DNA of 64,000 nucleotides, taken from Patescibacteria group bacterium. Lineage in GTDB: Bacteria; Patescibacteriota; Minisyncoccia; UBA6257; JACRHW01. Made by a program: the position numbers and the translations under genes. The stretch covers positions 1,697-65,696 of the forward strand of contig JAGWJP010000003.1 of assembly GCA_028865725.1 (NCBI GenBank), in the 5' to 3' direction. The notes under the pieces are model-generated. The model saw nothing but the letters and a program-made list of their open reading frames with translations, was not told the origin of the DNA and did no database searches. Positions 1,377-62,914 of the stretch are shown piece by piece (the first letter of the stretch is position 1; every line of letters starts with the position of its first letter).

Positions 1377-1485
1377 AAAAAACAACACGAGAAACATGTC
1401 TGTCGCCAAATAATTTAATATGATAATGGTAACTTCTCTCTGTCTAAAATAAGAGAAGGGGAGAGTTCCAATACTATCGTCTGGT

Positions 1486-10811: not shown

Positions 10812-11438
10812 ATGAAAACGGTATTGGTCTTGATTTTTATGGGCGGTGTAGCGTATTTTTTGATTCCCCAATTTTTAAACGCTTCTTCTGATACATATCT
10901 CTCATTCCTTTCCTCTCCACTGAGTACCGCGGGGACACATGCAGTAGCAACACTTGCAAATGGAACGCGCACTGCCATCACCACTGGCACCACAAATGTG
11001 AAAAATAGCATACAACACGAGATTTATCAGCTCGCACGATCTGCAGCAAAGCAAGGCATCCAATCGCTCAGCGCATCATTCGGTATCTCAGATGCAACTA
11101 CAAAGGATGCGGGCACCGCCCCTTCTTCTCCCACATTTCTCTCCACAACCGACACCTCAGCTGTTCACAATGCAAGTTCCTCGGTTACCTTTTGTCCGCT
11201 CTATAATAAAAATGAGGATGTGCGCTACACTGTACGCGGCATTACATACACAACTACTCCCTATACCTTTTCGGTCGCCTGGGGCGATGGAGAACGTACA
11301 ACGGCACAGCCTCTCCCCACAGGCCAAGACCTGTCTCTCACTCATCCTTATTCTGCTGCAGGAGACTATACTATAACGCTCTCTCTTTTTGAGGGGGGCA
11401 GCACTTATACTTACGATAAAAGTGTTTGCATCAGATAA
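10812..11438 (+). CDS. secreted protein with C-terminal PKD-like domain
   Basis: N-terminal signal/TM (VLVLIFMGGVAYFLI); C-terminal WGDGERT...LTHPYSAAGDYTITL resembles PKD WGDG/..H.Y..G.Y core. Confidence 0.4.
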   Translation: MKTVLVLIFMGGVAYFLIPQFLNASSDTYLSFLSSPLSTAGTHAVATLANGTRTAITTGTTNVKNSIQHEIYQLARSAAKQGIQSLSASFGISDATTKDAGTAPSSPTFLSTTDTSAVHNASSSVTFCPLYNKNEDVRYTVRGITYTTTPYTFSVAWGDGERTTAQPLPTGQDLSLTHPYSAAGDYTITLSLFEGGSTYTYDKSVCIR

Positions 11439-11525
11439 TGCCATCCCTGTACTTTATAGAGGCCTTTTATTTTCACACAAAAATAACTCCGCATACATAA
11501 AAGCTCCTCAGGAGGAGCCGTTTAT

Positions 11526-12248
11526 TTATTGTTGTTTGTACCACTTCACTAATTCATGGGTGAGCGTGCGCACATCTCTTCTTGCACGGATTCGTGTTGC
11601 AACAACATCAGGATCGGTGATTGTCCGCGTCTGCAAATGAAATGGGTCTATCGTGCGAACTCCACTCAAGTCTTCTCGTCCTGAAATCTGCGGGGTTCCT
11701 TCCATACCCCAAAATATGTGTGTCTGATACATAGTTTCCAAACGATGTCGTGAATCTCCTTCTTTCATGGGTCCGTCAACTCCCACAGTCGCTGTGTCGC
11801 TTTGAATATTGGCCCTCGAAAGTCCAATATTGAATACCTCGAATGTCTTACCATTATAAATCGTGTCTGTCACAATCAGTGCCTTAAGAGGCGCCTTGTT
11901 CCCAAAACGCGTTTTAGGGAGAATACGTGTAAGATAACCTGCGATATCCTCTGGTTTTTGATTGTAATCATAATCCCAGAAACTTCCTCCACCGCTCAAG
12001 GCAAAAAAGACGAGATGCGGATATCCTTTTTCTTTGTACACTTCATTAATCAAACGAAGCAAAATAAGAGAGGGGATTCTCCCCGAGGCCTCATCACTAA
12101 TAAGAAGCTGATACTCGCCCTTTTCGATATGGGGTCGAAGCTTGTTGAGTAATTTTTTTATGGGCCCGCGTAACTCCTCGATCGCAGGGAGAAGCTCCAC
12201 GTGTTCTTTCTCCTCTCTTCGTTGAGAAATACTAGGTGATTGATGCAT
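11526..12248 (-). CDS. hypothetical protein with phosphoribosyltransferase-like motif
   Basis: PRTase-type PRPP-binding pattern LKALIVTDTIYNGKTF; otherwise unrecognised. Confidence 0.3.
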   Translation of the reverse strand: MHQSPSISQRREEKEHVELLPAIEELRGPIKKLLNKLRPHIEKGEYQLLISDEASGRIPSLILLRLINEVYKEKGYPHLVFFALSGGGSFWDYDYNQKPEDIAGYLTRILPKTRFGNKAPLKALIVTDTIYNGKTFEVFNIGLSRANIQSDTATVGVDGPMKEGDSRHRLETMYQTHIFWGMEGTPQISGREDLSGVRTIDPFHLQTRTITDPDVVATRIRARRDVRTLTHELVKWYKQQ

Positions 12249-31407: not shown

Positions 31408-31538
31408 CACAAGTTTGCCTACGGCATCTCGCGACCCCAGCTCGCGTGCTCGTTTCTACTCGCACAAGCTCCGCTATTCGATTCCTAACGTGAGTGAAGC
31501 AGTTCACTCCCTCTAGGTGCACTCTCGCTTCTCTCGTG

Positions 31539-31611
31539 TGCACCCAGTAGGAATCGAACCTACAACCGTCTCCTTAAGAGGGAGCTGCTCTGCCAGTTGA
31601 GCTATGGGTGC
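31539..31611 (-). tRNA. tRNA-Lys (CTT)
   Basis: reverse complement gcacccatagctcaactggcagagca...ctcttaa...ggttcgattcctactgggtgca; anticodon loop cTCTTaa. Confidence 0.8.
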
Positions 31612-31671: not shown

Positions 31672-32622
31672 TCAATGATGATCGGATCCTTTTCTTCTCG
31701 TCCCATGAAACGCTTTGTGGATCTCCTTCAACTCTTTATTCGTGATATGCGTATATACTTGTGTAGTCGCAATATTTGCGTGGCCAAGCAGCATCTGAAC
31801 TGAGCGTAAGTCTGCGCCGTTCATCAATAAATCCGTGGCAAAGAGATGGCGCAATTTATGAGGAGTGGTGTGTTTTGCAATGCCCGCTTTTGTCGCATAG
31901 TGCTCAACAATGCGTTGTACGCTCCGCGGCGTAAGGCGTGTACGTGGACGCGGGGGATCGGAATGGGTAAAGGAAATAAACATCGCCTCTTCCATATCAG
32001 TACGCGCATGATAATAGGCCGTAAGTGCCGCCCTAGCACTGGGGGAGAGAAATACCACCCGCACCTTCCCTCCTTTTCCGCGTACTGAAAACTCCTCCCG
32101 TTCCATATCAATAGAATCACGATTCAATGCACAGAGCTCCGACACGCGAAGCCCTGTTGAGAATAAAAGCTCTAAAATAGCCTTATCACGCAATGCCTTC
32201 ACATCTTTTCCTCCCAAAGAAAGCATGCGTTCAAGGTCTTTTCCATCCAAAATATCGATATCGCGGTCAGGCACCTTCCCAAGCTCTATCTTATCGGCTG
32301 CAAGCGTTGCAATATCACGCTTTGCGCAATATTTCAGAAAATTGCGAATGGCGATCACGTAGTAATTTTGCGTCACTTTTTTAAGGGAGGGATGCTTGTC
32401 GCTCGCCACGCGATTGAGCCACAATCTAAACTGCCGTACCGACTCCTGCGTGATATCTTCTGGGTATTTTGCCTTTGAAGCCTCAAAAAACCGCTTCAGA
32501 TAGCGCTCATAATTCTCCCGCGTTTTGATAGACCGTCCCTTCTCGATCTCGAGATAATCGAGATAATCGATAAGAAGATCCTTAAGCTGTTTCATATTCG
32601 CATCATCAATCCAGTATAGCAC
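31672..32622 (-). CDS. tyrosine site-specific recombinase, XerC/XerD family
   Basis: N-terminal SAM-like core-binding domain; catalytic R..HxxR..Y (LRHLFATDLL...GH..I..TQVYTH). Confidence 0.8.
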   Translation of the reverse strand: MLYWIDDANMKQLKDLLIDYLDYLEIEKGRSIKTRENYERYLKRFFEASKAKYPEDITQESVRQFRLWLNRVASDKHPSLKKVTQNYYVIAIRNFLKYCAKRDIATLAADKIELGKVPDRDIDILDGKDLERMLSLGGKDVKALRDKAILELLFSTGLRVSELCALNRDSIDMEREEFSVRGKGGKVRVVFLSPSARAALTAYYHARTDMEEAMFISFTHSDPPRPRTRLTPRSVQRIVEHYATKAGIAKHTTPHKLRHLFATDLLMNGADLRSVQMLLGHANIATTQVYTHITNKELKEIHKAFHGTRRKGSDHH

Positions 32623-49284: not shown

Positions 49285-51666
49285 ATGTTCTCATTATCTC
49301 CACAATCCACATTCCGTCGTCTTTCCAAGCTCATTGGGGTACTGCTTGTTGTTGGCATTCTTCTTGTAAGTTCGCCCGCAAATTCATTTGCTCAAGGCGT
49401 TCTTGATAATAATCTTCCCACCCCATCAAGCAGTACCTCCTCTCTGGGTCCGGGGCATATCATAACGACAGACGTAGGGGCAACTACCATTGGATCTTCC
49501 GCCGTCCCCGCAGGGGGAAGTGTCGGTTTGCCTGCAGGCCCCGCGGGAGGAAGTGTTGATAGTACCGCAAATACGCCCTCATCAGCCGTGCCCTGCCCCG
49601 CGAACGGTCCGAGTGTAGTAGGAAAGGGTGCTTTTAGCCTTACAAATATCGGGCTTGACTTGCAAATGGTATTCGGGATGATACTCGTTGTCGGGACAAA
49701 TATATGGCTCTGGGTGCTTTATATGACGGCAACCTACATGAACCTGTTTGCCCAATACAACCCTGTCCACGAGCTTCACGCACTCGTAGAGATCTGGATG
49801 GTGCTGCGCGATTTTGTAAACATCGGGTTTGTAGTAGCCATGATCGTAATCGCGGTCGAAACGATGCTCGGGTTCACCACCTACACTTCACGTAACGCTC
49901 TCTTTACGCTTATTGTGGGCGCACTTCTCATTAACTTTAGCTTGGTGTTTATCAGCTTTTTTCTCGATCTTAATTCAGTGGGCACCTCATTTATGCTCGC
50001 GCAAATTAGCGGCAAAGGTCAATCATTTTCTCAAATCATCTACAATGGCGCGGGCGTTCAGCTCCAAACCACCCCGTCGCCGGGAAGCGGATGTCCCCCC
50101 GTAACTCAAGCCGAGGTAGACCTACAGAATTTAGGCGCATTAATGCACCTTGGAATGAGTGAGTTTACTATCATGATTATTACGCTTGTACTCCTCACTA
50201 TTTTTTGCGCATTTATCTTCCGTCTCGGCCACATCGCCGCGCTTGCGGTGACCTCGCCCTTTATTTGGATTGCGAATATATTTAACAATACAAAAAAAGA
50301 GTGGACGAAGTGGTGGTCTGAGTTCATCAAATGGTGTTTTATGCCCACCATCTCGCTCTTTTATATCTACCTCGCACTCACCGTCTATGCGGGCATAGGC
50401 GCATCGAAAACCGGAGGAATAGGCTTTCTTGACCAAGGAGCCAGCGGCACTGTGAACGCCTTTATGGGCATGGCGCTTACGAGCATCGTCCTCGGAATGC
50501 TTCTCATGACAGCAATTAAAGTAGCGTGGGTAAACTCCGGTGCGTTCGCGGAGCTCATGATGGCCGTCGCTGCCGTCGCCACGAACGGCATGACTGGCGC
50601 GCTTGGAACTGCAGTAAAAGGACTTGCCGGTGGGGCCCTCAAAGGAGCAGGAAAAGCCGCACTGAAGAGTGCGACAGAAGGAAAAGTTATTTCAAAAGTG
50701 CCTCTCATCCGCAGAGGAGTCGCTGGGATTGGTGAATCTGCCCTAGGGACAGGGGAAAAGTTCACAAAAGAGGTTCGGGAAAAGGCAGAAAAACGCGTCA
50801 AAGAAAAATCAAAGGAAAGGCTGGCATTTGATGCTGCCGAAGCACTTCGCACGGGCGCGCAGCAAAATATCATGGGAGCGGTTCAAAAAGCAGAAGCAGG
50901 GTTAGGAATAGGCAAGCTGCTGGCGGAAGATCCTCAGTTCAAGCTTAAAAATAAAGACGAGCTCAAACGCGCACATGATCTCATGAAAGCGGCGGGGAAC
51001 GAGGATGTATTCTTCAAAAATATTGGGAAAATGGATAGGGGTATTGCGAATGACTATGCAAAATCTCTCACAAAAGATGAAGATAGCCAAATGAAACTCG
51101 CGGAAAACCTTGCTACAAGCAAAAAACTCGACTCTGCCACTGCCGACGCAATGAGTATGAATGATCCTGCTACCAATAAACGCCTACAAACTCAATATCC
51201 AGAGGCGTATAAAAAAATTGTGGGTACAAATGTCATGTACGCGGAAAACGTGGTAAGCGCGGCAACCCCTAAAGATAAAGTAGCTGCTGCTTCAGCCAAT
51301 CTTTCGCGAATGAACAAGCAGGAGGCGGGCCAAGTAGATATGGATGACCTTTCGCACAATTCTGAAGGATTGGAAGCACTTACTAAATCACAAAGTCCAC
51401 AAGTCATCACAGAATATATACAACAAGGAAAAGAAAACAGCCAAATAGAAAGGCTCCATGCGCTGCGAGGAAACCTTCTGGGACAAATGGTGGCATCCGG
51501 TTTTCATGGCGACATAAAAACATTCGTAAAAACACATCCCGAGCTCCTGAAGCTGCACAAAACATTGAAAAATGAGAATACCAAGAAACTTATTACCTAT
51601 GCGGCTGGAAAAGCCTCAGCGGCGGGAAAACCTTCGAATAGGGATCTGCGAGAACTTTTACTATAA
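49285..51666 (+). CDS. VirB6/TrbL-like polytopic membrane protein with charged C-terminal extension
   Basis: signal peptide then >=6 TM helices in residues ~120-420, K/E-rich tail; size and topology like Gram-positive VirB6 homologues. Confidence 0.45.
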   Translation: MFSLSPQSTFRRLSKLIGVLLVVGILLVSSPANSFAQGVLDNNLPTPSSSTSSLGPGHIITTDVGATTIGSSAVPAGGSVGLPAGPAGGSVDSTANTPSSAVPCPANGPSVVGKGAFSLTNIGLDLQMVFGMILVVGTNIWLWVLYMTATYMNLFAQYNPVHELHALVEIWMVLRDFVNIGFVVAMIVIAVETMLGFTTYTSRNALFTLIVGALLINFSLVFISFFLDLNSVGTSFMLAQISGKGQSFSQIIYNGAGVQLQTTPSPGSGCPPVTQAEVDLQNLGALMHLGMSEFTIMIITLVLLTIFCAFIFRLGHIAALAVTSPFIWIANIFNNTKKEWTKWWSEFIKWCFMPTISLFYIYLALTVYAGIGASKTGGIGFLDQGASGTVNAFMGMALTSIVLGMLLMTAIKVAWVNSGAFAELMMAVAAVATNGMTGALGTAVKGLAGGALKGAGKAALKSATEGKVISKVPLIRRGVAGIGESALGTGEKFTKEVREKAEKRVKEKSKERLAFDAAEALRTGAQQNIMGAVQKAEAGLGIGKLLAEDPQFKLKNKDELKRAHDLMKAAGNEDVFFKNIGKMDRGIANDYAKSLTKDEDSQMKLAENLATSKKLDSATADAMSMNDPATNKRLQTQYPEAYKKIVGTNVMYAENVVSAATPKDKVAAASANLSRMNKQEAGQVDMDDLSHNSEGLEALTKSQSPQVITEYIQQGKENSQIERLHALRGNLLGQMVASGFHGDIKTFVKTHPELLKLHKTLKNENTKKLITYAAGKASAAGKPSNRDLRELLL

Positions 51667-51668
51667 AA

Positions 51669-53510
51669 ATGAACACAAGCATAACTTCACAACAGTACTT
51701 TGAACGGCTCGATATGCTCCCCGAAGACTTGAGAGACGCGTATTTTAGTCCGGACACTGAATCCATTATTGAAAAGGCAACGGAGGTAAACAACCTCACG
51801 CCCGAACAACTCAGTCTTGTCAAAGAAAATTCAGGATGGGTACTTCTTGGCTTTCTTCACCCCGATCATCTCGCAGAGATTTTAATACAGGACGCGGGAG
51901 TAAACCAAGCAACCGCTGTGATGATCGGACGGGAACTCAACCGCGATCTGTTTTTGCCGCACAAGAAATCTTTAACAGAAGTTCTCGTTACCTACCCACC
52001 CAAAAAAGAGTGGTTTGCAAATCTAGAAGGTAGAAAACAGAATATAGAAAATAACGAGGCCACACTCCCGAAAAATGATTCCATCATCCAGCGGCAAGCA
52101 CCCGCGCTGACACCGCCTACTCCAACGGCACCGCGTCCTATCGCGCCTCTCTCGCATCGGCTTACCCAGCCCACCCCTGTATTGCGTTCCGCGCAGCCTA
52201 TCACGCCGCCTCCCGCATCGACGCTTCCACCCCCTCCATCAACCTCGGCTCCTACCGCTTTGCACACGATCACCCCGCCACCTCTTGCCTCCGTAAGCCC
52301 CTCGGGGCTTCGCCCCGCGCTTCTTGAGGTCCAACCCCATGAAACAGATCAGACAACGACGGGTGTGCATAATCCCGTACCGCACGAAGAGGCAGAAGTA
52401 CGCACCGGCATGCCGTCTTCTGTGGCACCACAAAAACCACTCGCACAACCTTCCCTTGCTACACCAAGAAGAGTAGAACCCCAGCCAGATGCACGCCCAC
52501 ATACCACAGAACCACAAACCCCATGGACTCCGGCCCCGCTCCACTTCGATGCGCCTTCTGCCACCACTCCGCGGAGCGGATCTCCTGTACCCCCAAAAAC
52601 CTCTCCCTCTGTTCCCTTAACGCCACAGGCACCTCATACCATCTTTAAATACGGACCCCCCTCTCCACCACCCATTGTCGCAATTCCAAAAAACCAGCCG
52701 AATCCTTCCGTGCCACCCCTGCCCACACCTCGGCCTACCCCCGCAAGCCAACCTTCATCACCCCGTCCTTCTGCGCCGGCTCCTTTGGCACAATCCCGTC
52801 CCTTCACGCCCCCCTCAAAACCGGCAACGCCTCCCGCTCGCCCGAAACCCACAATGAATGGCGCTCCAGCATCACCCGTATCAAAAAATATTCCTGCCCG
52901 CGACACCGAGCCCTTGAATAACCCATCCGCCAATCCACGCATCGTCCAGCCTGCCCCAAAAGCACCGGAGCAAACTCAAAAACCGACCATGCCGAGCACG
53001 CCGTCGCCCTTGTCCCAGAACACCATGCCCCCACTTGCAACAAACACCCCGCCAGCGAACCCTTCCCCCAAGAATCATGCGATACCCGAAAAACAAGGAA
53101 ACAAACCCGAGGCTCAACTCATGGACTTATATCTCAAAAAACACGTCGGCGACGCGCAGACAGACTACCGAAAACCGACCGCGGAAAACAAGCAAACAGG
53201 AAGCGGGCAGATAGCAAATCGACGAGCGACCACCGGCTCGCAAACGGACGACAAACTACTGACCACAGAGAGCAAATCCCCGAAAAATGACAATGTCGCC
53301 CAGCGGCAGGCACCGAACGGGGATGGCGTTAAATCGGAGCAAGTGCAAAAAAATAATTCAATAAATGCAGCACGAGTCCCTTCGGCAAACTCAAAGCAGG
53401 CTTCCTCAACCACGCTCACCGATCCTCAGGTAATAGACCTTGAGGAATATAGTAAAACTCACAGAGGAAATGTGTTAAACTTAAAACAGGACGAAGAAAA
53501 TAGTAAATAG
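51669..53510 (+). CDS. protein with globular N-domain and ~450-aa Pro/Thr/Ser-rich low-complexity region
   Basis: 613 aa; PxxP-rich repeats. Confidence 0.4.
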   Translation: MNTSITSQQYFERLDMLPEDLRDAYFSPDTESIIEKATEVNNLTPEQLSLVKENSGWVLLGFLHPDHLAEILIQDAGVNQATAVMIGRELNRDLFLPHKKSLTEVLVTYPPKKEWFANLEGRKQNIENNEATLPKNDSIIQRQAPALTPPTPTAPRPIAPLSHRLTQPTPVLRSAQPITPPPASTLPPPPSTSAPTALHTITPPPLASVSPSGLRPALLEVQPHETDQTTTGVHNPVPHEEAEVRTGMPSSVAPQKPLAQPSLATPRRVEPQPDARPHTTEPQTPWTPAPLHFDAPSATTPRSGSPVPPKTSPSVPLTPQAPHTIFKYGPPSPPPIVAIPKNQPNPSVPPLPTPRPTPASQPSSPRPSAPAPLAQSRPFTPPSKPATPPARPKPTMNGAPASPVSKNIPARDTEPLNNPSANPRIVQPAPKAPEQTQKPTMPSTPSPLSQNTMPPLATNTPPANPSPKNHAIPEKQGNKPEAQLMDLYLKKHVGDAQTDYRKPTAENKQTGSGQIANRRATTGSQTDDKLLTTESKSPKNDNVAQRQAPNGDGVKSEQVQKNNSINAARVPSANSKQASSTTLTDPQVIDLEEYSKTHRGNVLNLKQDEENSK

Positions 53511-53514
53511 AAAA
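53496..53514. repeat. inverted copy of the AT-rich cluster motif (gaaaatagtaaatagaaaac)
   Basis: reverse complement gttttctatttactattttc ~ gttttctaatttctactttc at 54063. Confidence 0.5.
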
Positions 53515-53547
53515 CAAAAAATAGGTGGTGGTAACTACAAACTCATA

Positions 53548-53581
53548 TTATTCTAAATTCTATTTTCTACTTTCTAACACT
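53548..53581 (+). repeat. AT-rich cluster motif, forward copy (ttctaaattctattttctactttctaacact) immediately before ATG 53582
   Basis: shared core TTCTAWTTTCTACWTTCTAA with 54063, 54807, 56693. Confidence 0.55.
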
Positions 53582-53989
53582 ATGCAGGCAATGGTTCCAC
53601 AATTTATTGATGTAGAAGATCGCATCACCCCGCTTCTCACGATTAAGCAGTTTTTTTATTTAATAGCGGCGGGCGCGTGTTCGGCGATCCTCTACCCATT
53701 TTTGCAAACGATGCCATGGCTCGTACTTACTGCCCTTATATTAGGACTTGGAGCCGCATTCGGCTTTTTAAAAATTAACGGGCGCCCCTTTTCCGTAATG
53801 CTCTATATCGCTGCTAAATTTTTCTGGAACCCGCATCTTTATATGTTCCAGAAAAACATCACACGCGTGGAAATTTCCACGCCACAAGAACCTGTTCATG
53901 CGGAGAAAAAACGGGAACCTGAACGTGTTTCTTCGGAACGTCTCGAACAAATTTCACGCCTCCTCGATTCTAAAGGGGATTATAAGTAA
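53582..53989 (+). CDS. VirB3/PrgI-like small membrane protein
   Basis: ~135 aa, two adjacent TM helices after a short N-terminal segment, directly upstream of VirB4; ORF opens 53525 through the repeat. Confidence 0.45.
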   Translation: MQAMVPQFIDVEDRITPLLTIKQFFYLIAAGACSAILYPFLQTMPWLVLTALILGLGAAFGFLKINGRPFSVMLYIAAKFFWNPHLYMFQKNITRVEISTPQEPVHAEKKREPERVSSERLEQISRLLDSKGDYK

Positions 53990-54011
53990 GAAAATAGAAT
54001 GTAGAAATTAC
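53990..54011. repeat. inverted copy of cluster motif (gaaaatagaatgtagaaattac)
   Basis: gtagaaatta can pair with taatttctac at 54069-54078 (10-bp stem, ~57-nt loop). Confidence 0.5.
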
Positions 54012-54060
54012 AAAAGAGAACGCACAAAAACACTAACAGTTCTCCAAACAATTATAAACT

Positions 54061-54090
54061 CTGTTTTCTAATTTCTACTTTCTAAAAAAT
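54061..54090 (+). repeat. forward copy of cluster motif (ctgttttctaatttctactttctaaaaaat) before ATG 54091
   Basis: see above. Confidence 0.55.
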
Positions 54091-54735
54091 ATGGCTCAAG
54101 AATCTCAACCTACTCAACGCATCATCGATATTGAAACGATCCGAGATGGAACCGTTATCCTTAAAAACGGCGGGCTCCGCGCCGTAGTTATGGTACGCGG
54201 CATTAATGTTTATCTGAAGACGGAAAACGAACAAAATTCAATCATTAGCGCATTCCAGGAATTTTTGAACGGATTGGATTTTCCTATTGAAATCATCATT
54301 CATTCCCGCCGTCTCAATATCTTGGGGTATCTAGAAAAAATAAACGCGCGCAAAGAACAAGAAACTAATGACCTTCTCCGCACTCAAATAGATGAGTATC
54401 TTGCCTACATACGGGACCTCACCTCATCATCCACGATCATGTCAAAACGTTTTTACGTAGTTGTTTCGTACGATATGATTGCGCTTCCCGCACGCAAAGG
54501 AGGATTATTCCCACGTGCATCTCAAAACACATCGGCACTTCCTACTGATTTTGAAACTCAAAAATATCAGCTTGATCAACGTACTGATGTTATTATAGGG
54601 GGGCTTCAGCGCACGGGAGTCAATGCAGCACGCCTCGGTACCGAAGAGCTCGTCGAACTGTTTTATAATCTCTATAATCCTCAAGAAATAGAAAAGGGCG
54701 GCACCGACATTGCAAAACGACTGTCGTTAATATGA
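54091..54735 (+). CDS. VirB4-family protein, N-terminal fragment
   Basis: IIDIETIRDGTVILKNGGLRAVVMVRGINVYLKTENEQNSIISAFQEFLNGLDFPIEIIIHSRR matches the conserved N-terminal signature of Gram-positive VirB4 homologues (Tn916 Orf16/TrsE type). Confidence 0.55.
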   Translation: MAQESQPTQRIIDIETIRDGTVILKNGGLRAVVMVRGINVYLKTENEQNSIISAFQEFLNGLDFPIEIIIHSRRLNILGYLEKINARKEQETNDLLRTQIDEYLAYIRDLTSSSTIMSKRFYVVVSYDMIALPARKGGLFPRASQNTSALPTDFETQKYQLDQRTDVIIGGLQRTGVNAARLGTEELVELFYNLYNPQEIEKGGTDIAKRLSLI

Positions 54736-54806
54736 CAGTACCTAGAAAGAAGAAAACAGAAAATAAATAACATGAATACATCCCATTCACATTCTCTATT
54801 GTATAG

Positions 54807-54844
54807 TTCTATTTTCTACATTCTATTTTCTACATTCTAATACT
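54807..54844 (+). repeat. tandem duplication of cluster motif (2 x ttctattttctaca + ttctaatact) before ATG 54845
   Basis: 14-nt unit repeated head-to-tail at 54807-54820 and 54821-54834. Confidence 0.6.
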
Positions 54845-56650
54845 ATGGCATTTAATTTTCCTTTCTTTTCAAAGAAAAAAACAGAAGACCAAGACACATT
54901 TGGCCCTCTTCCTTCGCAGTATAAATTTGCAACGGATACGCTCCAAGACCTCTTGGCACCTCCGGGAATAGAAGCAACCAATGATTACTTGAAAATTGGA
55001 TCACTGTATACCAAAACGTTATTCCTGTTTTCATATCCCAATGTTCTTTCAAGCGGATGGTTTTCTTCGGTCATTAATATCGAAAAAAGCTTTGATATCG
55101 CCATTTACCTCGACCCCATGGACACCGCTACCGCGCTAAAAAATTTGAGAAAAAAAGTGGCGCAAATTGAAAGCCAATTGATGGAACAGCAGGAAAAGGG
55201 CCTCGTACGCGACCCTCTTCTCGAAGCATCTTACAAAAATATCGAAGGATTGCGCGATAGTCTTCAACAAGCAGAAGAAAAATTATTTAACCTTGGTATT
55301 TATATCACGATCTACGCTACGGACACATCCGAACTCCAGAAGTACGAATCCGAAGTAGCAGGATTGCTTGAGGGACGGATGATTTATATTAAGCCAACTC
55401 TCTTTGAGCATCTTGAAGGATTCCAAACTACTCTCCCGCTCGTATCCGACAAAGTACAGGTTTATACCCCTTTCGATACTGTTCCCATTTCGACACTATT
55501 TCCATTTGACTCCGCAGAACTTACCTCTGATGACGGGATTTTATACGGGGTCAACATGCACAATAACAGTCTCATTATTTTTGACCGCTTTTCTCTTGAA
55601 AACGCGAACATGGTTATATTTGCAAAGTCGGGATCCGGAAAATCTTTCTTCACTAAGCTGGAAATCCTCCGCAGTCTTATGATGGGAACCGACATTCTTA
55701 TCATTGACCCCGAAAATGAATACCAAGCTCTTTCCGAGGCAATCGGAGGAGGATATTTCCGTATTTCACTCTCTTCAGAACACCGTATCAACCCCTTTGA
55801 TCTTCCTCCCATTCCTCCCGACGAATCTCCATCCGATGTTTTACGTTCTCACATCCTCATGCTTACAGGACTTATTAAAATCATGGTGGGGGAGATTACT
55901 CCTACGGAGGAGGCCCTCATCGATCAAGCGCTTCTCGAAACATATGCCTCTCGAGAAATCGTGCCCGATTCTAACTTTACAGGAAAAACACCGCCCCTGC
56001 TCTCCGATCTCCAGACGGTTCTTGAAAGCATAGAAGGGGGGGCGGATCTTGCAAAGCGTCTCGAAAAATATACAAAAGGAACCTATGCGGGCTTTTTAAA
56101 CAGTCCGTCCAATGTACAAATCAGAAACCGTCTCACGGTATTTAACATCCGTGACCTCGAAGAAGAACTCCGTCCTATCGCCATGTATATGATCCTAAAC
56201 TTTATGTGGAGCCTGATTCGCGCGGAATTTAGAAAGCGCCTTCTTATCGTTGACGAGGCATGGGTACTCATGAAATACGAGGATGGGGCAAACTTTTTGT
56301 TTGGTATGGCAAAACGAGGCAGGAAGTATTTCCTTGGCATCACGACCATTACGCAGGATATTGACGACTTTCTGCGTTCGCCCTATGGACGCCCCATTGT
56401 CACAAACTCCTCGTTACAATTATTGCTCAAACAATCTCCCGCAACGATTGATATTATAGGAACCACATTCAACCTTACGGAAGCAGAAAAGATGATCCTC
56501 CTCGAAGCAAATGTGGGGGAGGGGATCTTTTTTGCGGGATTACGCCACGCCGCCATTCATGTCATCGCCTCTTACACCGAAGGTAAGCTTGCTTCTACAA
56601 AACCACAGGAATTACTTGCAAGAATGGAAGGAAAAACAGAAACGCAGTAA
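54845..56650 (+). CDS. VirB4-family ATPase, C-terminal part (ATPase domain)
   Basis: DYLKIGSLYTKTLFLFSYP N-domain continuation; Walker A AKSGSGKSF; Walker B LLIVDEAW; 601 aa. Confidence 0.8.
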   Translation: MAFNFPFFSKKKTEDQDTFGPLPSQYKFATDTLQDLLAPPGIEATNDYLKIGSLYTKTLFLFSYPNVLSSGWFSSVINIEKSFDIAIYLDPMDTATALKNLRKKVAQIESQLMEQQEKGLVRDPLLEASYKNIEGLRDSLQQAEEKLFNLGIYITIYATDTSELQKYESEVAGLLEGRMIYIKPTLFEHLEGFQTTLPLVSDKVQVYTPFDTVPISTLFPFDSAELTSDDGILYGVNMHNNSLIIFDRFSLENANMVIFAKSGSGKSFFTKLEILRSLMMGTDILIIDPENEYQALSEAIGGGYFRISLSSEHRINPFDLPPIPPDESPSDVLRSHILMLTGLIKIMVGEITPTEEALIDQALLETYASREIVPDSNFTGKTPPLLSDLQTVLESIEGGADLAKRLEKYTKGTYAGFLNSPSNVQIRNRLTVFNIRDLEEELRPIAMYMILNFMWSLIRAEFRKRLLIVDEAWVLMKYEDGANFLFGMAKRGRKYFLGITTITQDIDDFLRSPYGRPIVTNSSLQLLLKQSPATIDIIGTTFNLTEAEKMILLEANVGEGIFFAGLRHAAIHVIASYTEGKLASTKPQELLARMEGKTETQ

Positions 56651-56711
56651 GTAGAAATAGGAAAGGAGATGCGGAGTCTTAAATTTTGTTTACTACTTTC
56701 TATTTTCTCGT
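56651..56711. repeat. inverted (gtagaaatagga) and forward (ctttctattttctcgt) cluster motif copies flanking intergenic region
   Basis: same motif family as 53990/54061. Confidence 0.45.
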
Positions 56712-57413
56712 ATGTCTCGTGGTATAATAACAGTAATGCGTCAATTCCTACTTTTTGTATTTGCCGTGTTGTTTGCCGCCATACCCGTTTCATATGCGGC
56801 GAGTTCTCATTTTCTTACATGGAAAACAAATACCTATGTTCCTCAGGAGTTTTGGGGCAAACCGCTTCCTATAAAAGGATCGGCCGTCACGCTCAGCGTG
56901 CAATCCCTCGACCCTCAAGAATCGTTTTCAAACATACCGATAACATGGTATGTCGACAACATCATAATTGCACAAGGTAATGGCCTCTCCACCACCCCCT
57001 ATACGGTAACAGAAGGTCCCGGACTGTATGTCATCAAAGCATTTTTGCGCCTTCCTGACGGTACTCCTGAAACCCTCACCGCTCCCCTCAAAGTAGTCGC
57101 TCCGTTCGTGTCGCTTGTAGAACAACATGCGGCTACTGTGAATCATCAGATCTCTACCGCAAACACCGAGCTTCGCTTTCACGCCATTCCACTCTTTTAC
57201 AACACATCGTCCCTCCTTGGCCTTGCTTTCACGTGGGGAGTGGGGGATGTAACAAGCGAAGACCAAAATCCTCAAAATCCCGATTACGCATCCATTACTT
57301 TTCCAGAAGGAGCATCGTCCGGATCGCGCGGTACCGTCACAGTTAGCGTGACAAATATTGCGCATCCTGATGAACATGCTTCACAGTATACTACTGTAAT
57401 CACTCCCCAATAA
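56712..57413 (+). CDS. secreted hypothetical protein
   Basis: signal peptide MRQFLLFVFAVLFAAIPVSYAASS (alt start 56736); 233 aa. Confidence 0.4.
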   Translation: MSRGIITVMRQFLLFVFAVLFAAIPVSYAASSHFLTWKTNTYVPQEFWGKPLPIKGSAVTLSVQSLDPQESFSNIPITWYVDNIIIAQGNGLSTTPYTVTEGPGLYVIKAFLRLPDGTPETLTAPLKVVAPFVSLVEQHAATVNHQISTANTELRFHAIPLFYNTSSLLGLAFTWGVGDVTSEDQNPQNPDYASITFPEGASSGSRGTVTVSVTNIAHPDEHASQYTTVITPQ

Positions 57414-57427
57414 TACACCGGCTACCT

Positions 57428-58243
57428 ATGAAACGACTCTCTTTCGCCATTCTATTACTACTTGTCACCATGTTTCTTGGTGCGGGAATATTCTCGCTCG
57501 TATCCGCTGCTCCGCCGCCTGGTGATGTGACGCTCTCAGCGGGTCTCCCGGGGACTGGAAACACGCAAGAAATTAAACCCGGGGAAACCATACACGTCCA
57601 AACACTTGACCAACTTACAAATTATCTAAGCACGCTTATTCGTTTTCTGTTCGGACTTGCCGCGGTACTGGCTGTCGTCTCTATCGCATGGGCAGGTCTC
57701 CAATATATGGCAGCGGGGGCAAGTATTGGTAATATGCGCGCCGCAACCGATCGTATTCGCAACGTGATCTTTGGACTCGTTCTGCTCCTTACCGGGTTTT
57801 TAATCCTCCGCACCATCAATCCCAAAATTCTCAGCGGTCTTCCTGGAGAAGAAAAACTCCCTTTTCTCCCGATCATCAACGCGCCACAAGTTCAAACACA
57901 GGAAGTAACAATGAAAGTAATTAACCAAACAAAAGCAATCAAAAATACTAATGTCGACACTTATGTCCAACAGCGATTAACCGACAATGGCGGAAACCAA
58001 ACAAAAGCAATCAGCGCAACAACACAAATACTAAGTGAAATACGAGTGAGGATAGCTAAAGAGAACGAGGAGTTGAACAACTTAAAAAACCAAATCAATA
58101 CAACATCTGATCCAACCACCAAAGCTCAATTGGAATCATCTTATGGAGAATCCAGAGGAAATTTGCAACGAGATCAGGCAAGCTTGGCTCGAGAGCAAAA
58201 GACACTTCAAGTATTACAATCACAGTCAAACACGACACCTTAG
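57428..58243 (+). CDS. VirB2/TrbC-type pilin-like protein
   Basis: signal peptide, then two hydrophobic helices (LSTLIRFLFGLAAVLAVVSIAWAGLQYMAAGAS ; VIFGLVLLLTGFLILRTI) separated by a short basic loop, plus Q/N/T-rich tail. Confidence 0.45.
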   Translation: MKRLSFAILLLLVTMFLGAGIFSLVSAAPPPGDVTLSAGLPGTGNTQEIKPGETIHVQTLDQLTNYLSTLIRFLFGLAAVLAVVSIAWAGLQYMAAGASIGNMRAATDRIRNVIFGLVLLLTGFLILRTINPKILSGLPGEEKLPFLPIINAPQVQTQEVTMKVINQTKAIKNTNVDTYVQQRLTDNGGNQTKAISATTQILSEIRVRIAKENEELNNLKNQINTTSDPTTKAQLESSYGESRGNLQRDQASLAREQKTLQVLQSQSNTTP

Positions 58244-58255
58244 CAAAACAAGTAC

Positions 58256-59488
58256 ATGTCTCAGCGGCAAAAAATACTTATCATTATTGTCGGAATCATT
58301 GTCCTTATGGGATTTTTGGGGTTGCTTGTTTTCTTTTTTGGGAAAAAATCCGCATCTCCTCCTCCAGGAGCAAACACGGCAAATAGCGATATATCGACAA
58401 TACCATCGTTGACCCCTGAAAATATAACCGCGTCTTCATCGTTTACACAGATCACGGAAAACCCCGTCCCTCTCGCATATTACGATCAAGGAATACTCTA
58501 CTCCATCGATACGAATGGCGCATTGTGGAAAAAAGACTTGAGTGCTCCTACGACCGTCCAAACACAAGGTGTCTCTTCCTCCACCATTGCGGGGGAGGTA
58601 ATTCCTCCCGCTCCTACGAATGAAGCGCAACGTCTCGGCGGATTCACTGTCAACAATCCAAACACGCTACTCGTCTCTCCAAACGGAAATACCATTCTTA
58701 TTGGAGAGGGGACAGTAAACGGACAAAAAACATTTTCACTCGTCTCCCAAAACGGAGATCCCATAGTCACACTACCTCAAGGAGTGGAAGAAGCGGCGTT
58801 CTTAACAAATGCCACGCTTGCGTATTATAAAGAAACGATCTCAGGGGCTGGGATCTATACCTATACCATTACCGATAAAAAAGAGCGTCTGATACGAACC
58901 CTCAATCCACTTGATATACATCTCTACCGTATCGATGACACGACCCTTCTCCTCGCAGAAAAACCTACTCACGGTATTACCACGGCCAGCTTTCTTCTCA
59001 ATATGAAAACAGGGGTGCTCTCGAATTATTTTTCAGGGTTTCTTGGCACCTCATTATCTCCGCTAGGAAATCAAAGAGTCCTTGCTCTAACCGGAGATCC
59101 AATCGACGCAAATGGAAATAGCTCCTACCATCTCTCCTTGCTCAACAAGGAGGGGTCTGTCACCCATACGCTTACTATTATCACCATGCCGGAAAAATGT
59201 GTTGCCGACGCGCAGGGCATCTACTTGTATTGCGCGATCCCTTTGGAATGGACCTCGAATATGCCAGACTTGTCCTTACCAGACGACTACTATGCACAAA
59301 ATGCAGGATTTTCTGAGACTATTTTACGTATAAACCTACAAACCTTTTTTACTGAAAACATCAACCAGACCCCCACACTCTATGATGCAGTACACCTCTC
59401 GTTAAGCGCCGACAACACGACCCTCTATTTCTATGACAGAAGAACAAATAATGAATTTTCCCTCTTGTTGCCCCCTCCAAAAATCTGA
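58256..59488 (+). CDS. membrane-anchored extracytoplasmic protein (beta-rich)
   Basis: N-terminal TM ILIIIVGIIVLMGFLGLLVFFF, 380-aa beta-strand-rich ectodomain. Confidence 0.4.
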   Translation: MSQRQKILIIIVGIIVLMGFLGLLVFFFGKKSASPPPGANTANSDISTIPSLTPENITASSSFTQITENPVPLAYYDQGILYSIDTNGALWKKDLSAPTTVQTQGVSSSTIAGEVIPPAPTNEAQRLGGFTVNNPNTLLVSPNGNTILIGEGTVNGQKTFSLVSQNGDPIVTLPQGVEEAAFLTNATLAYYKETISGAGIYTYTITDKKERLIRTLNPLDIHLYRIDDTTLLLAEKPTHGITTASFLLNMKTGVLSNYFSGFLGTSLSPLGNQRVLALTGDPIDANGNSSYHLSLLNKEGSVTHTLTIITMPEKCVADAQGIYLYCAIPLEWTSNMPDLSLPDDYYAQNAGFSETILRINLQTFFTENINQTPTLYDAVHLSLSADNTTLYFYDRRTNNEFSLLLPPPKI

Positions 59489-59590
59489 TTCATGATGCCC
59501 TTACGGACCTCGTATTCGCCTGAAGCCTAACAAATATCCTCAGACTTACATGCCTGAGGATATTTATCTCACTGTCTCTCACACCGCGAT

Positions 59591-60034
59591 TTAAGGATTA
59601 TAAGGCCTAATTGTTACATAACGATTATCACCCTCTCCCTTACTCTCCGTAATAATATCAGGATGTACGGCAAGTTCAAGGTGAATAATGCGCCGTTCAA
59701 AGGGTTTCATGGGAGGAAGTCTAACTTCTTTTTTGGTCGTCACTACTTGTCGGGCTATTTTTCTAATATATTCCTTCAATTTTCCTTCCCGTTCACTCCT
59801 GTAATTATTAATATCAATAGAAAATACAGTGTCAATATTACTGTGTTTTGCGAGAAGTTTTAGTACTCTCTCGATATCAGAAATGTTTTCTCCATTTTTT
59901 CCAATCATAAACCCCGCGTCGTCAAGAGATATCTGTATTTTTGCAGCAGTACCCAGAAAGACCGCACTTACCTGTGGGTTCTGGATTCCCATATTATGTA
60001 AAAACTCTTCGATGAGTGTTTGGAGCTGTCCCAT
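59591..60034 (-). CDS. jag: Jag/KhpB-like RNA-binding protein (KH + R3H)
   Basis: IGKNGENI KH GxxG loop and C-terminal R3H (RRIIHLEL); adjacent to yidC. Confidence 0.8.
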   Translation of the reverse strand: MGQLQTLIEEFLHNMGIQNPQVSAVFLGTAAKIQISLDDAGFMIGKNGENISDIERVLKLLAKHSNIDTVFSIDINNYRSEREGKLKEYIRKIARQVVTTKKEVRLPPMKPFERRIIHLELAVHPDIITESKGEGDNRYVTIRPYNP

Positions 60035-60055
60035 ACCTCACAAATTTCTTGTTCC

Positions 60056-60772
60056 TTATATTTGTTTTATCTCCGTTTCAAGAGATTCTGACTGAATAAT
60101 ACGTTTTGTTACTACGTATTCACCAATGGAGAATACCGTACTTGCGATCCAGTACAATCCTACCACTGCAGGTAGTTTTACCAAAATAATCAACGTTAGT
60201 AAAGGAAACACAAAAATCATAGCCGACATCATTTGGGCCGCTTCTCCTCCCGCAGTATTCGGCATAAAGAATTTTGACTGTATAAACTGAAGAAGCGCGG
60301 CAACAAGTGCCACTTCAATAAGAGGTGTGTTTACATCGAAAAGACCTAAAAAGGTATGATGGACAGGAAGAGTAATATGAATAAATGAATAGAGGGAGGC
60401 CTGAACATTAGAGGAAAATGCCTTCATACTGATACGATAGAGTGTAATAAGAAGCACTACTTGTACAATGATAAAAAGAAAACCTGAAAAAGGATTAATT
60501 TTGTGCCTTTCATACAAGTGCATCATAGCCTTCACCTGGGCTTCTTTGTCGTCTTTATGCTCTTTTTGTATTTTTGCCATCTCAGGCTGAAGCTTGCTTA
60601 GTACCATCTGGTAGCGCATATTTTTGTGAAAAATAGGAAAAATAGCCAAGCGCACAACAATAGTAAACAAGATAATAGCAATGCCCGCATCTGAAAAAGC
60701 AGCGGTGTGGTAAATAAAAAATAAAAGATTGGTAAGCGGTCTTACTATAATTTCATTATAGAGAAAAACCAT
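60056..60772 (-). CDS. yidC: membrane protein insertase YidC (short form)
   Basis: GIAIILFTIVVRLAIFPIFHKNMRYQMVLSKLQPEMAKIQ conserved TM2-loop region of YidC/Oxa1; 238 aa. Confidence 0.85.
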   Translation of the reverse strand: MVFLYNEIIVRPLTNLLFFIYHTAAFSDAGIAIILFTIVVRLAIFPIFHKNMRYQMVLSKLQPEMAKIQKEHKDDKEAQVKAMMHLYERHKINPFSGFLFIIVQVVLLITLYRISMKAFSSNVQASLYSFIHITLPVHHTFLGLFDVNTPLIEVALVAALLQFIQSKFFMPNTAGGEAAQMMSAMIFVFPLLTLIILVKLPAVVGLYWIASTVFSIGEYVVTKRIIQSESLETEIKQI

Positions 60773-60787
60773 AACATTATTTCTTGG

Positions 60788-61144
60788 TTAAACTAACAAT
60801 TTTGCCCGACGAAAGAGCGTGGTAAGTTCTTGCCTCCGTTTTTCATGTTTCATGGTATACACGACAGAAGAAGTAACTCTTATTACTATATCATATCCCA
60901 TGACAAGAGAGGGGCGTAATTCTTCCATAACACCACGCATCGCCCTTTTTATATAGTTTCGTTCTACTGCTTTCTTATTTATTTTTGCCCCCACCACTAC
61001 TGTTGCTCGCGTACACATCAGATTATTTTCTTTGATATATAACGCGAAAAAGGGTGAGGATACCCTTTTACCCGACACAAAAACCTTTTTCACCCCATCG
61101 TTTCTTAAAAGACGCTGTATCTTTTTCTCCACAGCATTAAACAT
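60788..61144 (-). CDS. rnpA: ribonuclease P protein component
   Basis: K.V.RN.IKR..R RNR motif region; start overlaps rpmH stop (TAATG). Confidence 0.7.
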   Translation of the reverse strand: MFNAVEKKIQRLLRNDGVKKVFVSGKRVSSPFFALYIKENNLMCTRATVVVGAKINKKAVERNYIKRAMRGVMEELRPSLVMGYDIVIRVTSSVVYTMKHEKRRQELTTLFRRAKLLV

Positions 61145-61281
61145 TAAGCGCTTAAAGAAGCACGTCCTTTGCGACGCCTGTTCTGTAACACCCGCTTTCC
61201 CCCAGGAGTTCGCGATCGTTTTAAAAATCCATGAGTGCGCGCGCGTTTTCTTTTTTTGGGTTGATATGTTCTTTTTGGCAT
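61144..61281 (-). CDS. rpmH: 50S ribosomal protein L34
   Basis: hand translation of the reverse strand gives [45 protein letters not shown] (45 aa), below the 60-aa ORF-track cutoff. Confidence 0.85.
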
Positions 61282-61440
61282 AAAAAATAATACAGTTCAG
61301 TTCATTATTATGTGTATTTGCAGTATATCTTTTTCTCTGTTTTTTTTCAATCCCACTGCCAAAACAACATCGTTATACGAATAAGCCATTGGCATATAAG
61401 CCTGGGGGGGTTTTGTTTCTTAAATTTTCGAAAAAAATAT

Positions 61441-61449
61441 CTATCCACA
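61441..61449. promoter_or_regulatory. DnaA box (cTATCCACA) in rpmH-dnaA intergenic region
   Basis: 8/9 match to TTATCCACA. Confidence 0.4.
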
Positions 61450-61546
61450 GCTTCTTCACAACTTCTCCATTGGTCAAGACTTGTTCGCGTCACAAACGAT
61501 GCTATACTGCAGATATCACGTAAGTATTCTATCTTTGTTTTTTATG

Positions 61547-62914
61547 AACTGCGACGAATTATGGCAAAAGATTCTAGGAGAACTAGAACTCCAAATTTCG
61601 AAAGCTAATTTTATTACGTGGCTAAAGCACAGCTCCCTCACAGAAGTCAATCAGGGCGTTGCAAAAATATCTCTCAAATCAAATTTTGCAAAAGAATGGG
61701 TAGAAAATAAATATCACAAACAAATACTTCATCTTCTCCATTATTATGACAACTCAATACGCAATGCACATTATGTTATTGTCTCAGCCGCAACGATTTC
61801 TCCGCTCGTTTCTTCACAAAAAACATTTGCCGCTGCAGAAGAACTCCAGTTAGAAATTGCCGAGCAGGGAATTGATCCCGTTACCAACCTTAACGCGAAA
61901 TATAATTTCGATCATCTTGTAATAGGAGCCACTAATGAACTCGCCGCAGCGGCATGTTACGCTATTATTCAAGAAGTGGGTAAAAAATATAACCCGTTAT
62001 TTATCTATGGGGGAGTAGGAGTGGGAAAAACACATCTTCTTCAGGCAACGGGAAATGAAATTGTTAAAAAATACCACAATCAAATAAAAGTACTTTACGT
62101 CACGTCGGAAAAATTCACAAGCGATGTCGTCACTGCGTTACAAACAAAAGGAATCGAACGCATTGATGCCATGAAACAAAAATATCGTAATGCGGATGTT
62201 CTTATTATTGATGACATCCAGTTTATTGCTGGACGAGAACGTACGGAAGAAGAATTCTTTAATACTTTCAATGCTCTTTATAATAACAACAAACAGATTA
62301 TCCTTTCTTCTGATCGCCCCCCGCGCGCACTTCCTATTATTGCAGAACGCTTAAAATCTCGTTTTGAGGGGGGAATGCTTGCCGATATTCAATTCCCCGA
62401 ATATGAAATGCGACTCGCTATTCTTAAAAATAAACTCCTTGATAAACAATGCGATCTACCTGATTACGTAATAGAAACTATTGCACAAAAAGTTCAAAAA
62501 AACATACGAGAATTAGAAGGTATGCTTACCAAAGTTATTTTCATCACACGTCAAAAAGGACTTCCTCCCGAACAAGAGGAATTAGAGAAGGTACTTCGTG
62601 TGTATTCCGATACGTCTGTACGCATGATTTCTCCTGCAAAAATAATAAAAACTACTGCTGATTTTTTCGAAATTAATGAAAAAGATGTAATAGGCCATGA
62701 AAGAAAAAAAGAAGTAGTTCTTCCCCGTCAAGTTGCCATGTATCTTTTAAGAAAAGAATTAAAAGCTTCCTATCCTTTTATTGGTGCTAAATTTGGAAAC
62801 AGAGATCACACCACCGCTATTCATGCTTACAACAAAATTTCAAATGAAGTAGCAAAAAATAATAATTTGAATCGAATTATTTCGGAAATTATTGAACGCA
62901 TTAATAATAATTAA
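61547..62914 (+). CDS. dnaA: chromosomal replication initiator DnaA
   Basis: N-terminal LWQKIL, Walker A GGVGVGKTHLL, Walker B VLIIDDIQF, C-terminal DnaA box-binding HTT (DHTTAIHAY); ORF opens 61481. Confidence 0.9.
   Translation, partial: NCDELWQKILGELELQISKANFITWLKHSSLTEVNQGVAKISLKSNFAKEWVENKYHKQILHLLHYYDNSIRNAHYVIVSAATISPLVSSQKTFAAAEELQLEIAEQGIDPVTNLNAKYNFDHLVIGATNELAAAACYAIIQEVGKKYNPLFIYGGVGVGKTHLLQATGNEIVKKYHNQIKVLYVTSEKFTSDVVTALQTKGIERIDAMKQKYRNADVLIIDDIQFIAGRERTEEEFFNTFNALYNNNKQIILSSDRPPRALPIIAERLKSRFEGGMLADIQFPEYEMRLAILKNKLLDKQCDLPDYVIETIAQKVQKNIRELEGMLTKVIFITRQKGLPPEQEELEKVLRVYSDTSVRMISPAKIIKTTADFFEINEKDVIGHERKKEVVLPRQVAMYLLRKELKASYPFIGAKFGNRDHTTAIHAYNKISNEVAKNNNLNRIISEIIERINNN

Follow-up and report, generated by a model that had tools for sequence, protein, structure and literature searches.

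Palindromic heptanucleotide arrays, probably inserted elements, at four gene junctions of a type IV secretion cluster in a Patescibacteria group bacterium

The DNA described here, hereafter the window, is a stretch of 64,000 nucleotides from a Patescibacteria group bacterium (positions 1,697 to 65,696 of contig JAGWJP010000003.1, assembly GCA_028865725.1) that carries a type IV secretion system (T4SS) gene cluster with short repeats in four of its intergenic spacers. The cluster comprises, in order, two large unknown proteins (49285-51666 and 51669-53510), a PrgI-family protein, a TraC-like protein, a VirB4-type ATPase, an unknown secreted protein, a T4SS pilin and a 410-aa protein. Downstream, on the opposite strand, lie jag, yidC and rnpA, then dnaA, and the rest of the window is ordinary housekeeping DNA. 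The four spacers from the open reading frame (ORF) at 51669-53510 to the secreted-protein gene are referred to as junctions 1 to 4 (J1 to J4).

Just 5' of the ATGs that follow these spacers are tandem arrays of three to five units of TTCTAnn, a TTCTA core with two variable bases. The arrays end at 53576, 54084, 54839 and 56709, which is 2-6 nt 5' of the ATGs at 53582, 54091, 54845 and 56712, and degenerate reverse copies, TAGAAnn, stand at or after all four preceding stops (53510, 53989, 54735 and 56650). A first-pass annotation, made from the sequence alone, had reported a recurrent motif of about 20 nt, forward before these four ATGs and inverted after three of the stops. The repetition is real and far above chance, but its unit is a 7-nt tandem repeat arranged in inverted pairs. 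The forward copies lie where they had been placed, except that ATG 56712 is probably not a true start, and the reverse copies after stops 53510, 53989 and 56650 are joined by one at stop 54735, which had not been listed.

In a pattern count over the 64 kb, TTCTANNTTCTA is found 11 times where 0.09 would be expected, and a three-heptad pattern allowing at most two mismatches occurs 16 times against 0.18 expected. All heptad matches fall within 53494-56709, with the sole exception of a partial reverse array at 52024-52049, giving four copies at adjacent junctions and one partial copy in the window. Tandem Repeats Finder reports period 7 at 53495, 54065 and 54784, and a perfect (100% identity) 14-nt tandem duplication of 2.4 copies at 54807-54839, present in one arm only. 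With at least three head-to-tail 7-nt copies, the arrays are heptanucleotide simple-sequence repeats. Within them the TTCTA core (positions 1-5) is much better preserved than positions 6 and 7. No other of the 59 genes of the window is preceded by two or more copies of TTCTA within 40 bases. The motif had been noted as absent before other genes, and this holds for all of them, although the partial reverse array lies inside ORF 51669-53510. A generic AT-rich initiation context was rejected on the same count, although single CTA triplets are mildly enriched before starts.

The two kinds of array face each other across each spacer. Arm pairs in all four spacers are 18-25 nt long and 76-89% complementary, with loops of 38-45 nt, and they are the strongest long-range inverted repeats in the entire 64 kb; the pairing of 54001-54010 with 54069-54078 in junction 2, picked out earlier, is correct on reading the sequence. 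All four spacers thus hold two inverted units forming one extragenic hairpin, the arrangement of repetitive extragenic palindromes (REPs) paired into REPINs, and the junction elements have terminal inverted repeats in the manner of miniature inverted-repeat transposable elements (MITEs). Arms also match between junctions: 53990-54008 in the 5' arm of junction 2 is the exact 19-nt reverse complement of 54820-54838 in the 3' arm of junction 3, so that the TraC-like gene is flanked by inverted repeats able to pair as RNA or recombine as DNA. The coordinates of the arms and of the neighbouring features are collected in Table 1.

Table 1. Repeat arms, adjoining genes and related features; positions are those of the window unless a relative's locus (L number) is named.
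Feature	Coordinates	Strand	Remarks
Partial TAGAAnn array, 3.7 units, in frame in ORF 51669-53510	52024..52049	+	Encodes ...LEGRKQNIE...
Junction 1 5' arm, degenerate TAGAAnn	53488..53512	+	Overlaps last codons and TAA stop (53508-53510) of ORF 51669-53510
Junction 1 3' arm, four heptads TTCTAAA TTCTATT TTCTACT TTCTAAC	53551..53578	+	3 nt 5' of ATG 53582
PrgI-family gene, 135 aa	53582..53989	+	
Junction 2 5' arm GAAAATAGAATGTAGAAATTACAAAAGAGA	53990..54019	+	Directly 3' of stop 53989
Junction 2 3' arm, three to four units (TCTGTTT TCTAATT TCTACTT TCTAAA)	54060..54086	+	88% complementary to 5' arm; followed by ATG 54091
TraC-like protein, 214 aa, VirB4 N-terminal-domain homologue, PF26593	54091..54735	+	
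Junction 3 5' arm TAGAAAGAAGAAAACAGAAAATA	54743..54765	+	7 nt past stop 54735
Junction 3 3' arm, eight heptads, last five with exact TTCTA core	54784..54841	+	Contains 14-nt duplication 54807-54839; followed by ATG 54845
VirB4-type ATPase, 601 aa; TraG P-loop, AAA_10, DUF87	54845..56650	+	
Junction 4 5' arm GTAGAAATAGGAAAGGAG	56651..56668	+	Directly 3' of stop 56650
Junction 4 3' arm, three degenerate units TACTACT TTCTATT TTCTCGT	56691..56711	+	
Extended -10 TGGTATAAT (56720-56728), 7 nt, ATG 56736	56720..56738	+	Bounds junction 4, outside the repeat
32-nt near-palindromic repeat pairs	L003 4487-4652; L206 1172-1337; L207 746-911; L205 70-302		

A VirB4 protein scan of 185,579 species genomes yielded 80 loci, and more relatives were fetched via the TraC-like protein. 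The closest clade is star-like, with VirB4 83-88% identical. In loci L003, L206 and L207, whose VirB4 is 85% identical, gene order is unchanged and the junctions read TAGTATG, TAATATG and TAATATATG; stop/start junctions in close relatives measure 1-4 nt, against spacers of 60-110 nt in the window. At the TraC-like/VirB4 junction the median estimated length is about -1.5 nt in 82 loci, and only 7 reach 40 nt or more. Given that close relatives with the same gene order have such short junctions, the tight, presumably translationally coupled arrangement is ancestral and the window's 60-110 nt spacers are derived insertions. The same comparison disposes of the earlier suggestion that the repeat had split VirB4: the TraC-like protein (about 210 aa) is encoded by a gene of its own in 434 relatives, including genomes in which the two genes are 3 nt apart, so VirB4 was not divided by the repeat.

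The heptads themselves are poorly conserved at orthologous T4SS loci, where the first-pass annotation had suggested looking for conservation. TTCTA heptads were found at 2 of the 80 loci only, L001, in which junction 2 has five TAGAAnn and five TTCTAnn units, and, in reversed orientation, L036 (TCTCTAA x4 ... TTAGAGA x4, fold energy -36 kcal/mol). Other palindromes occupy the same four junctions in L001, L002, L204 and L205, belonging to the families ATTCGTA/TACGAAT, TAGCTC/GAGCTA and CAAAACn/GTTTTGn, and yet another is found at junction 2 of L015 and L018; several of the relatives' families have a 7-9 nt periodicity. It is palindromy that is conserved at the junctions, and not sequence.

The palindromes also move between junctions and are replaced quickly. 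Junctions 2 and 3 of L204 are identical over 109 nt, TTAGCGAGATTAGCTC is common to J3 of L002 and J2 of L205, TTGCAGTTTTGACTTTTG is common to J4 of L204 and J3 of L205, and J3 of L001 has 14 nt in common, on opposite strands, with Jd of L036. These shared spacer sequences mean that the same families occupy non-orthologous junctions in different genomes. VirB4 is 96% identical between L002 and L204, but their palindrome families at J3 and J4 differ.

The same gene cluster has also received small nuclease and transposase genes in relatives. In L023, an 86-aa GIY-YIG ORF (5712-5995, E = 6.6e-17) lies between the TraC-like and VirB4 genes, its stop overlapping the VirB4 ATG, and is flanked by the inverted repeats GATCCCGTTAGAGAC ... 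GTCTCTAACGGGAT. L014 has at the same junction an ORF-less hairpin (5855-5995) with the termini of the L023 element, so that the two form an ORF-carrying and ORF-less pair, in a family other than TAGAA/TTCTA. A PD-(D/E)XK nuclease ORF (PF13366) occupies 1321-1731 in L036, again between the TraC-like and VirB4 genes; it adjoins spacers with TTCGTnTT repeats. Finally, L204 carries at 10861-11712, between the pilin gene and the next secretion gene, a Y1 transposase whose best match is the REP-associated tyrosine transposase (RAYT) model NF047646 (75 bits, cut-off 80). A perfect 17-nt inverted repeat, GGGGACAGCCACCATTG, flanks the gene, together with (TAACGGG)x4; the L014 and L023 elements likewise have the TAACGGG motif as their termini.

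With moderate confidence, we interpret the four spacers as ORF-less, REPIN/MITE-like palindromic elements with heptanucleotide-array arms, inserted in tight T4SS junctions and remodelled by slippage. Of the three explanations that the first-pass annotation had offered (a cluster-specific promoter or operator, an RNase III or translational-coupling structure, and a miniature repeat that spread within the locus), the last is the best supported, by the insertion status, the shared spacers, the turnover and the nuclease genes at the junctions.

The folding of the spacers bears on the second of these. The relatives' junction spacers fold with z scores of -3 to -9 against shuffles, on both strands, where 14 control spacers of the window average about -1. 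In the window, J2 and J4 fold better on the sense strand, J1 and J3 on the antisense strand. Two of the four hairpins do not fold significantly better than shuffles on the sense strand (z -0.5 and -0.7), and the spacers contain no sense-strand G-U signature. Stem predictions give 18-25 bp with mismatches for the window, and as many as 39 bp for L204. Because the antisense strand folds as well as the sense strand, the spacers show no sign of RNA-specific structure; they are DNA palindromes. The hairpins that had been proposed do exist, but they fold on the antisense strand too and are absent from close relatives with the same operon.

Such hairpins might nonetheless be selected cis-acting RNA structures, in which a stop-to-start stem enforces coupling by unmasking, or an RNase III cut sets mRNA stability or stoichiometry, much as at T7 intercistronic sites or Correia elements. 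In most spacers the base of the stem falls between about -12 and +14 nt relative to the stop and at 0-12 nt from the start, the downstream genes have neither a Shine-Dalgarno (SD) sequence nor a promoter, synonymous sites are saturated between the window and L001 while the arms are conserved, and hairpins recur at these junctions in several lineages. The stop/start geometry, however, is automatic for an element that fills a former junction of 1-4 nt, since one arm then has to adjoin the stop and the other the start. Families are exchanged between near-identical genomes, close relatives lack any spacer, and the equal or better antisense folds in half of the spacers and the two weak sense-strand hairpins tell in the same direction. 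Both-strand folding together with absence from close relatives gives no indication of a selected RNA role, which we consider unlikely, if still deserving a serious hearing.

A different function would have the arrays act in translation initiation, with the pyrimidine-rich UUCUAnn arrays just 5' of the starts recruiting ribosomes or an RNA-binding protein. In a variant of this idea, UAGAAA, which is present in the 5' arms of all four junctions and is complementary to the Firmicute-type 16S rRNA tail UUUCUA-3', would pair with that tail and tether terminating ribosomes. Junction 4 also contains GAAAGGAG. No rRNA gene lies in the window. SD-like motifs precede only 7 of the 59 window genes, CTA is 3.2-fold enriched at -10 to -1 with the four secretion genes excluded, and the 3' arms keep TTCTA better than the 5' arms keep TAGAA, all in favour of an initiation role. 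A precedent exists in the TAACTGA heptamer repeats of Beggiatoaceae, which abut SD-less start codons and for which recruitment of ribosomes or an RNA-binding protein has been proposed, no function having been assigned (PMC4679880). The array, however, precedes no other window gene, the relatives' orthologous junctions hold unrelated sequences or none, and the orientation is reversed in L036. Moreover, among the metagenome loci listed from the search described below, TTCTA before a start (about 15) is not clearly favoured over TAGAA before a start (about 11), and an initiation element therefore seems improbable to us.

Promoter-like and terminator-like sites in the 51-60 kb interval are at or below shuffle expectation, and J1-J3 contain no SD sequence or promoter. 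The cluster-specific promoter or operator raised earlier is not supported, given this absence of promoter enrichment, the lack of conservation of the motif at orthologous loci and the absence of any heptad-binding regulator (ribbon-helix-helix, RHH, or HutP) among the window proteins. More specifically, arrays of direct and inverted 7-bp repeats could serve as operators for a repressor controlling the secretion genes, just as the heptads of plasmid pSM19035 are bound by the omega RHH protein. The arrays fit such a system in being contiguous heptads, in both orientations and in one gene cluster only, with five conserved core positions and two variable ones. The arrays are located inside the operon, not at promoters, neither the cluster nor the window proteins include an RHH protein or other candidate regulator, and relatives have different heptads or none, so that this model would need a new regulator in each genome. 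We hold it to be very improbable.

Several more specific candidates were also discarded. An omega-type heptad operator was rejected for want of promoter enrichment and of an RHH protein among the window ORFs, and a HutP-type binder because none occurs among the window proteins. No terminator-like site lies on the plus strand in any spacer, and the stems are A+U-rich with loops of about 40 nt; an intrinsic terminator, with its short G+C-rich stem and U tract, was dismissed on these grounds. Integron attC sites do not fit, as the arm ends do not agree with the core sites RYYYAAC/GTTRRRY and gene order is conserved in the 80 relatives. No Rfam covariance model matched 51000-60000 with E <= 1.

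The repeat structure itself raises the possibility of phase variation, in which heptad number would switch or tune secretion-gene expression, as 7-bp repeats upstream tune the Haemophilus hmw genes. The 7-nt repeats are genuinely tandem and include a recent perfect duplication, and the heptad number at junction 2 differs between the window (3) and L001 (5). Three independent assemblies or runs of the organism are base-identical across junctions 2 and 3, however, and short (3-5 units), imperfect arrays such as these slip at lower rates; we give phase variation scarcely any weight.

The inserted-element reading implies a sequence of events that can be set out as follows. Elements would have entered the junctions of a translationally coupled operon, at first 1-4 nt long (about 22 nt at the fourth), and their arrays would later have grown or shrunk by replication slippage; the one-sided perfect duplication at 54807-54839 shows array growth regardless of pairing. 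Once co-transcribed with the operon, an element would form a hairpin running from stop to start. On reaching the upstream stop, a terminating ribosome would then melt the base of the stem and free the region 5' of the next SD-less ATG, making re-initiation possible, so that coupling would largely survive and the insertion be tolerated. The genes downstream of J1-J3, lacking a promoter or SD sequence of their own, must still be translated from polycistronic RNA, and toleration probably does proceed through this coupling by unmasking. Mobilisation through a single-strand hairpin handled by an HUH or other nuclease is suggested by the nuclease and transposase genes found at the same junctions in relatives.

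A number of observations weigh against this reading. Comparison of filled (window, L001, L002, L204, L205) with empty (L003, L206) junctions revealed no target-site duplication. There is no transposase or nuclease gene, Y1 transposases included, among the proteins of the 64 kb, and hence no RAYT flanked by the window repeat; an autonomous relative with the termini of the TAGAA/TTCTA family was not found either, and the repeat flanking the L204 transposase differs from the junction elements of that genome. Within the window the elements are restricted to four consecutive junctions of the secretion cluster, which is unexpected of a freely transposing element. The four loops are mutually unrelated, only the heptad arms being common, so that the copies do not derive recently from a single element. 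The junction-2 arms of the window and L001 keep about 85% identity, even though four-fold degenerate sites have reached saturation between the two (29-39% identity); this could reflect purifying selection on the arms, not re-insertion. The better-kept TTCTA core and 3' arms likewise hint at constraint beyond palindromy. Cluster confinement, shared arms beside unrelated loops, the better-kept core and 3' arms, and arm identity with L001 fit either purifying selection or the re-insertion and homogenisation of one family.

A more ambitious version would see in these elements an undescribed class of junction-seeking selfish elements in Patescibacteria, with periodic (7-9 nt) hairpin arms and versions carrying nuclease genes (GIY-YIG, PD-(D/E)XK, RAYT-like), homing into T4SS stop/start junctions and kept because the hairpin preserves coupling, the heptads being nuclease recognition sites. 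This we regard as speculative and distinctly unlikely.

Among known systems, the Correia elements of Neisseria are MITEs that are co-transcribed and cut by RNase III. The window elements resemble MITEs of this type in their size (about 100 nt), inverted termini, position in operon intergenic DNA and long mRNA hairpins, and L023 and L014 reproduce the occurrence of ORF-carrying and ORF-less versions with the same termini; they differ in that no target-site duplication is seen, no parent element is known for TAGAA/TTCTA and the arms have a 7-nt periodicity. T4-like phages carry free-standing homing-endonuclease genes (GIY-YIG seg, HNH mob) between conserved genes. The GIY-YIG gene of L023 and the PD-(D/E)XK gene of L036 are comparable, being inserted exactly beside the conserved VirB4 gene and variably present among relatives, whereas the window elements carry no ORF. 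In Rickettsia, palindromic elements are tolerated in frame inside protein-coding genes, which recalls the in-frame array at 52024-52049, although this is a single arm in an ORF and has no dispersed copies. That array has no inverted partner nearby; it sits exactly where homology to the relatives' N-terminal domain (residues 1-118) gives way to a long proline-rich region. In four relatives, the coding region homologous to ORF 51669-53510 contains two copies of a 32-nt near-palindromic repeat, GAAGTCGGACTTCC...GGAAGTACGACTTCC (Table 1).

The REPs and REPINs of Pseudomonas and E. coli (PMC3116915) are likewise short palindromes in extragenic DNA between co-directional genes, each consisting of two inverted repeats and folding into a hairpin of about 60-120 nt; their families differ between related genomes, and the RAYT-like Y1 transposase of L204, flanked by inverted repeats in the same cluster, adds to the likeness. 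Unlike REPINs, the window elements have tandem heptad arrays as arms, are limited to one operon with the arms alone shared, and have no RAYT. The short tandemly repeated repetitive (STRR) sequences of cyanobacteria and the TAACTGA repeats of Beggiatoaceae share with the window the tandem 7-nt intergenic unit, often a few nucleotides from SD-less starts, in many unrelated taxa; the TAACTGA repeats, however, are nearly always direct and are dispersed over about 170 genes, while the window arrays are inverted pairs filling four adjacent operon junctions (PMC4679880). No account of palindromic repeats in Patescibacteria secretion loci came up in a literature search.

Arrays of this kind are by no means peculiar to this cluster. 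Heptanucleotide units are the commonest class of long simple-sequence repeats in prokaryotes (PMC4679880, citing Mrazek 2007), and an exact search for four TTCTAnn units returned at least 120 metagenome loci and at least 120 viral-contig loci. Among the metagenome loci listed, G+C content ranges from 0.25 to 0.68 and about 90% of the arrays are intergenic. Many abut gene ends, where the stop is often the array's own TAG or TAA (at offsets of -3, -10 and -17 or -6, -13 and -20), and several form inverted pairs with hairpins of -39 to -56 kcal/mol, some ending just 5' of an ATG. TTCTAnn arrays are thus a widespread, general kind of simple-sequence repeat. A cyanobacterial origin was rejected, only 7 of the 120 listed loci being rich in the HIP1 octamer. 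Three of the 120 lie near secretion-cluster homologues, a figure that can be interpreted only against the number of Patescibacteria loci. In two Patescibacteria secretion-cluster loci, L168 (about 1479-1511, minus strand) and L171 (1385-1417), TTCTAnn arrays lie inside the apparent coding sequence of hydrophobic, signal-peptide-like N-termini.

The fourth junction also bears on gene annotation. Homologues of the fourth gene start with MRQ(F/L)LL, which corresponds to ATG 56736 in the window, and a TGnTATAAT seven bases 5' of the equivalent ATG is conserved in five genomes. The annotated start at ATG 56712 (233 aa) is therefore probably wrong, and ATG 56736, giving a protein of 225 aa, is probably the true, leaderless start. 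Conservation of the TGnTATAAT would imply that the distal part of the secretion cluster is transcribed from an internal promoter as a leaderless mRNA. TATAAT is positioned for leaderless transcripts at several window genes.

As for its setting, the cluster directly abuts the jag-yidC-rnpA and dnaA origin-region genes (59591-62914). The same adjacency seems to recur in L001, L014, L029 and L036, judged solely by the size of minus-strand ORFs past the cluster, so the cluster is probably a core chromosomal locus. Elsewhere in the window, a tyrosine recombinase gene (31672-32622, minus strand) adjoins tRNA-Lys (31538-31611); it could encode XerC/D or the integrase of an integrated element.

To our knowledge, intergenic repeats in the small, gene-dense genomes of Patescibacteria are essentially undescribed. 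At this locus, palindromic elements and small nuclease genes have repeatedly colonised even tightly coupled operon junctions, and turnover is fast between near-identical genomes. The elements account for the odd spacers and possible mis-called starts of the secretion cluster, and the apparently split VirB4 is the ancestral state, not damage. If the hairpins do preserve coupling, these junctions would offer a natural test case for re-initiation across long structured spacers in organisms that rarely use SD sequences.

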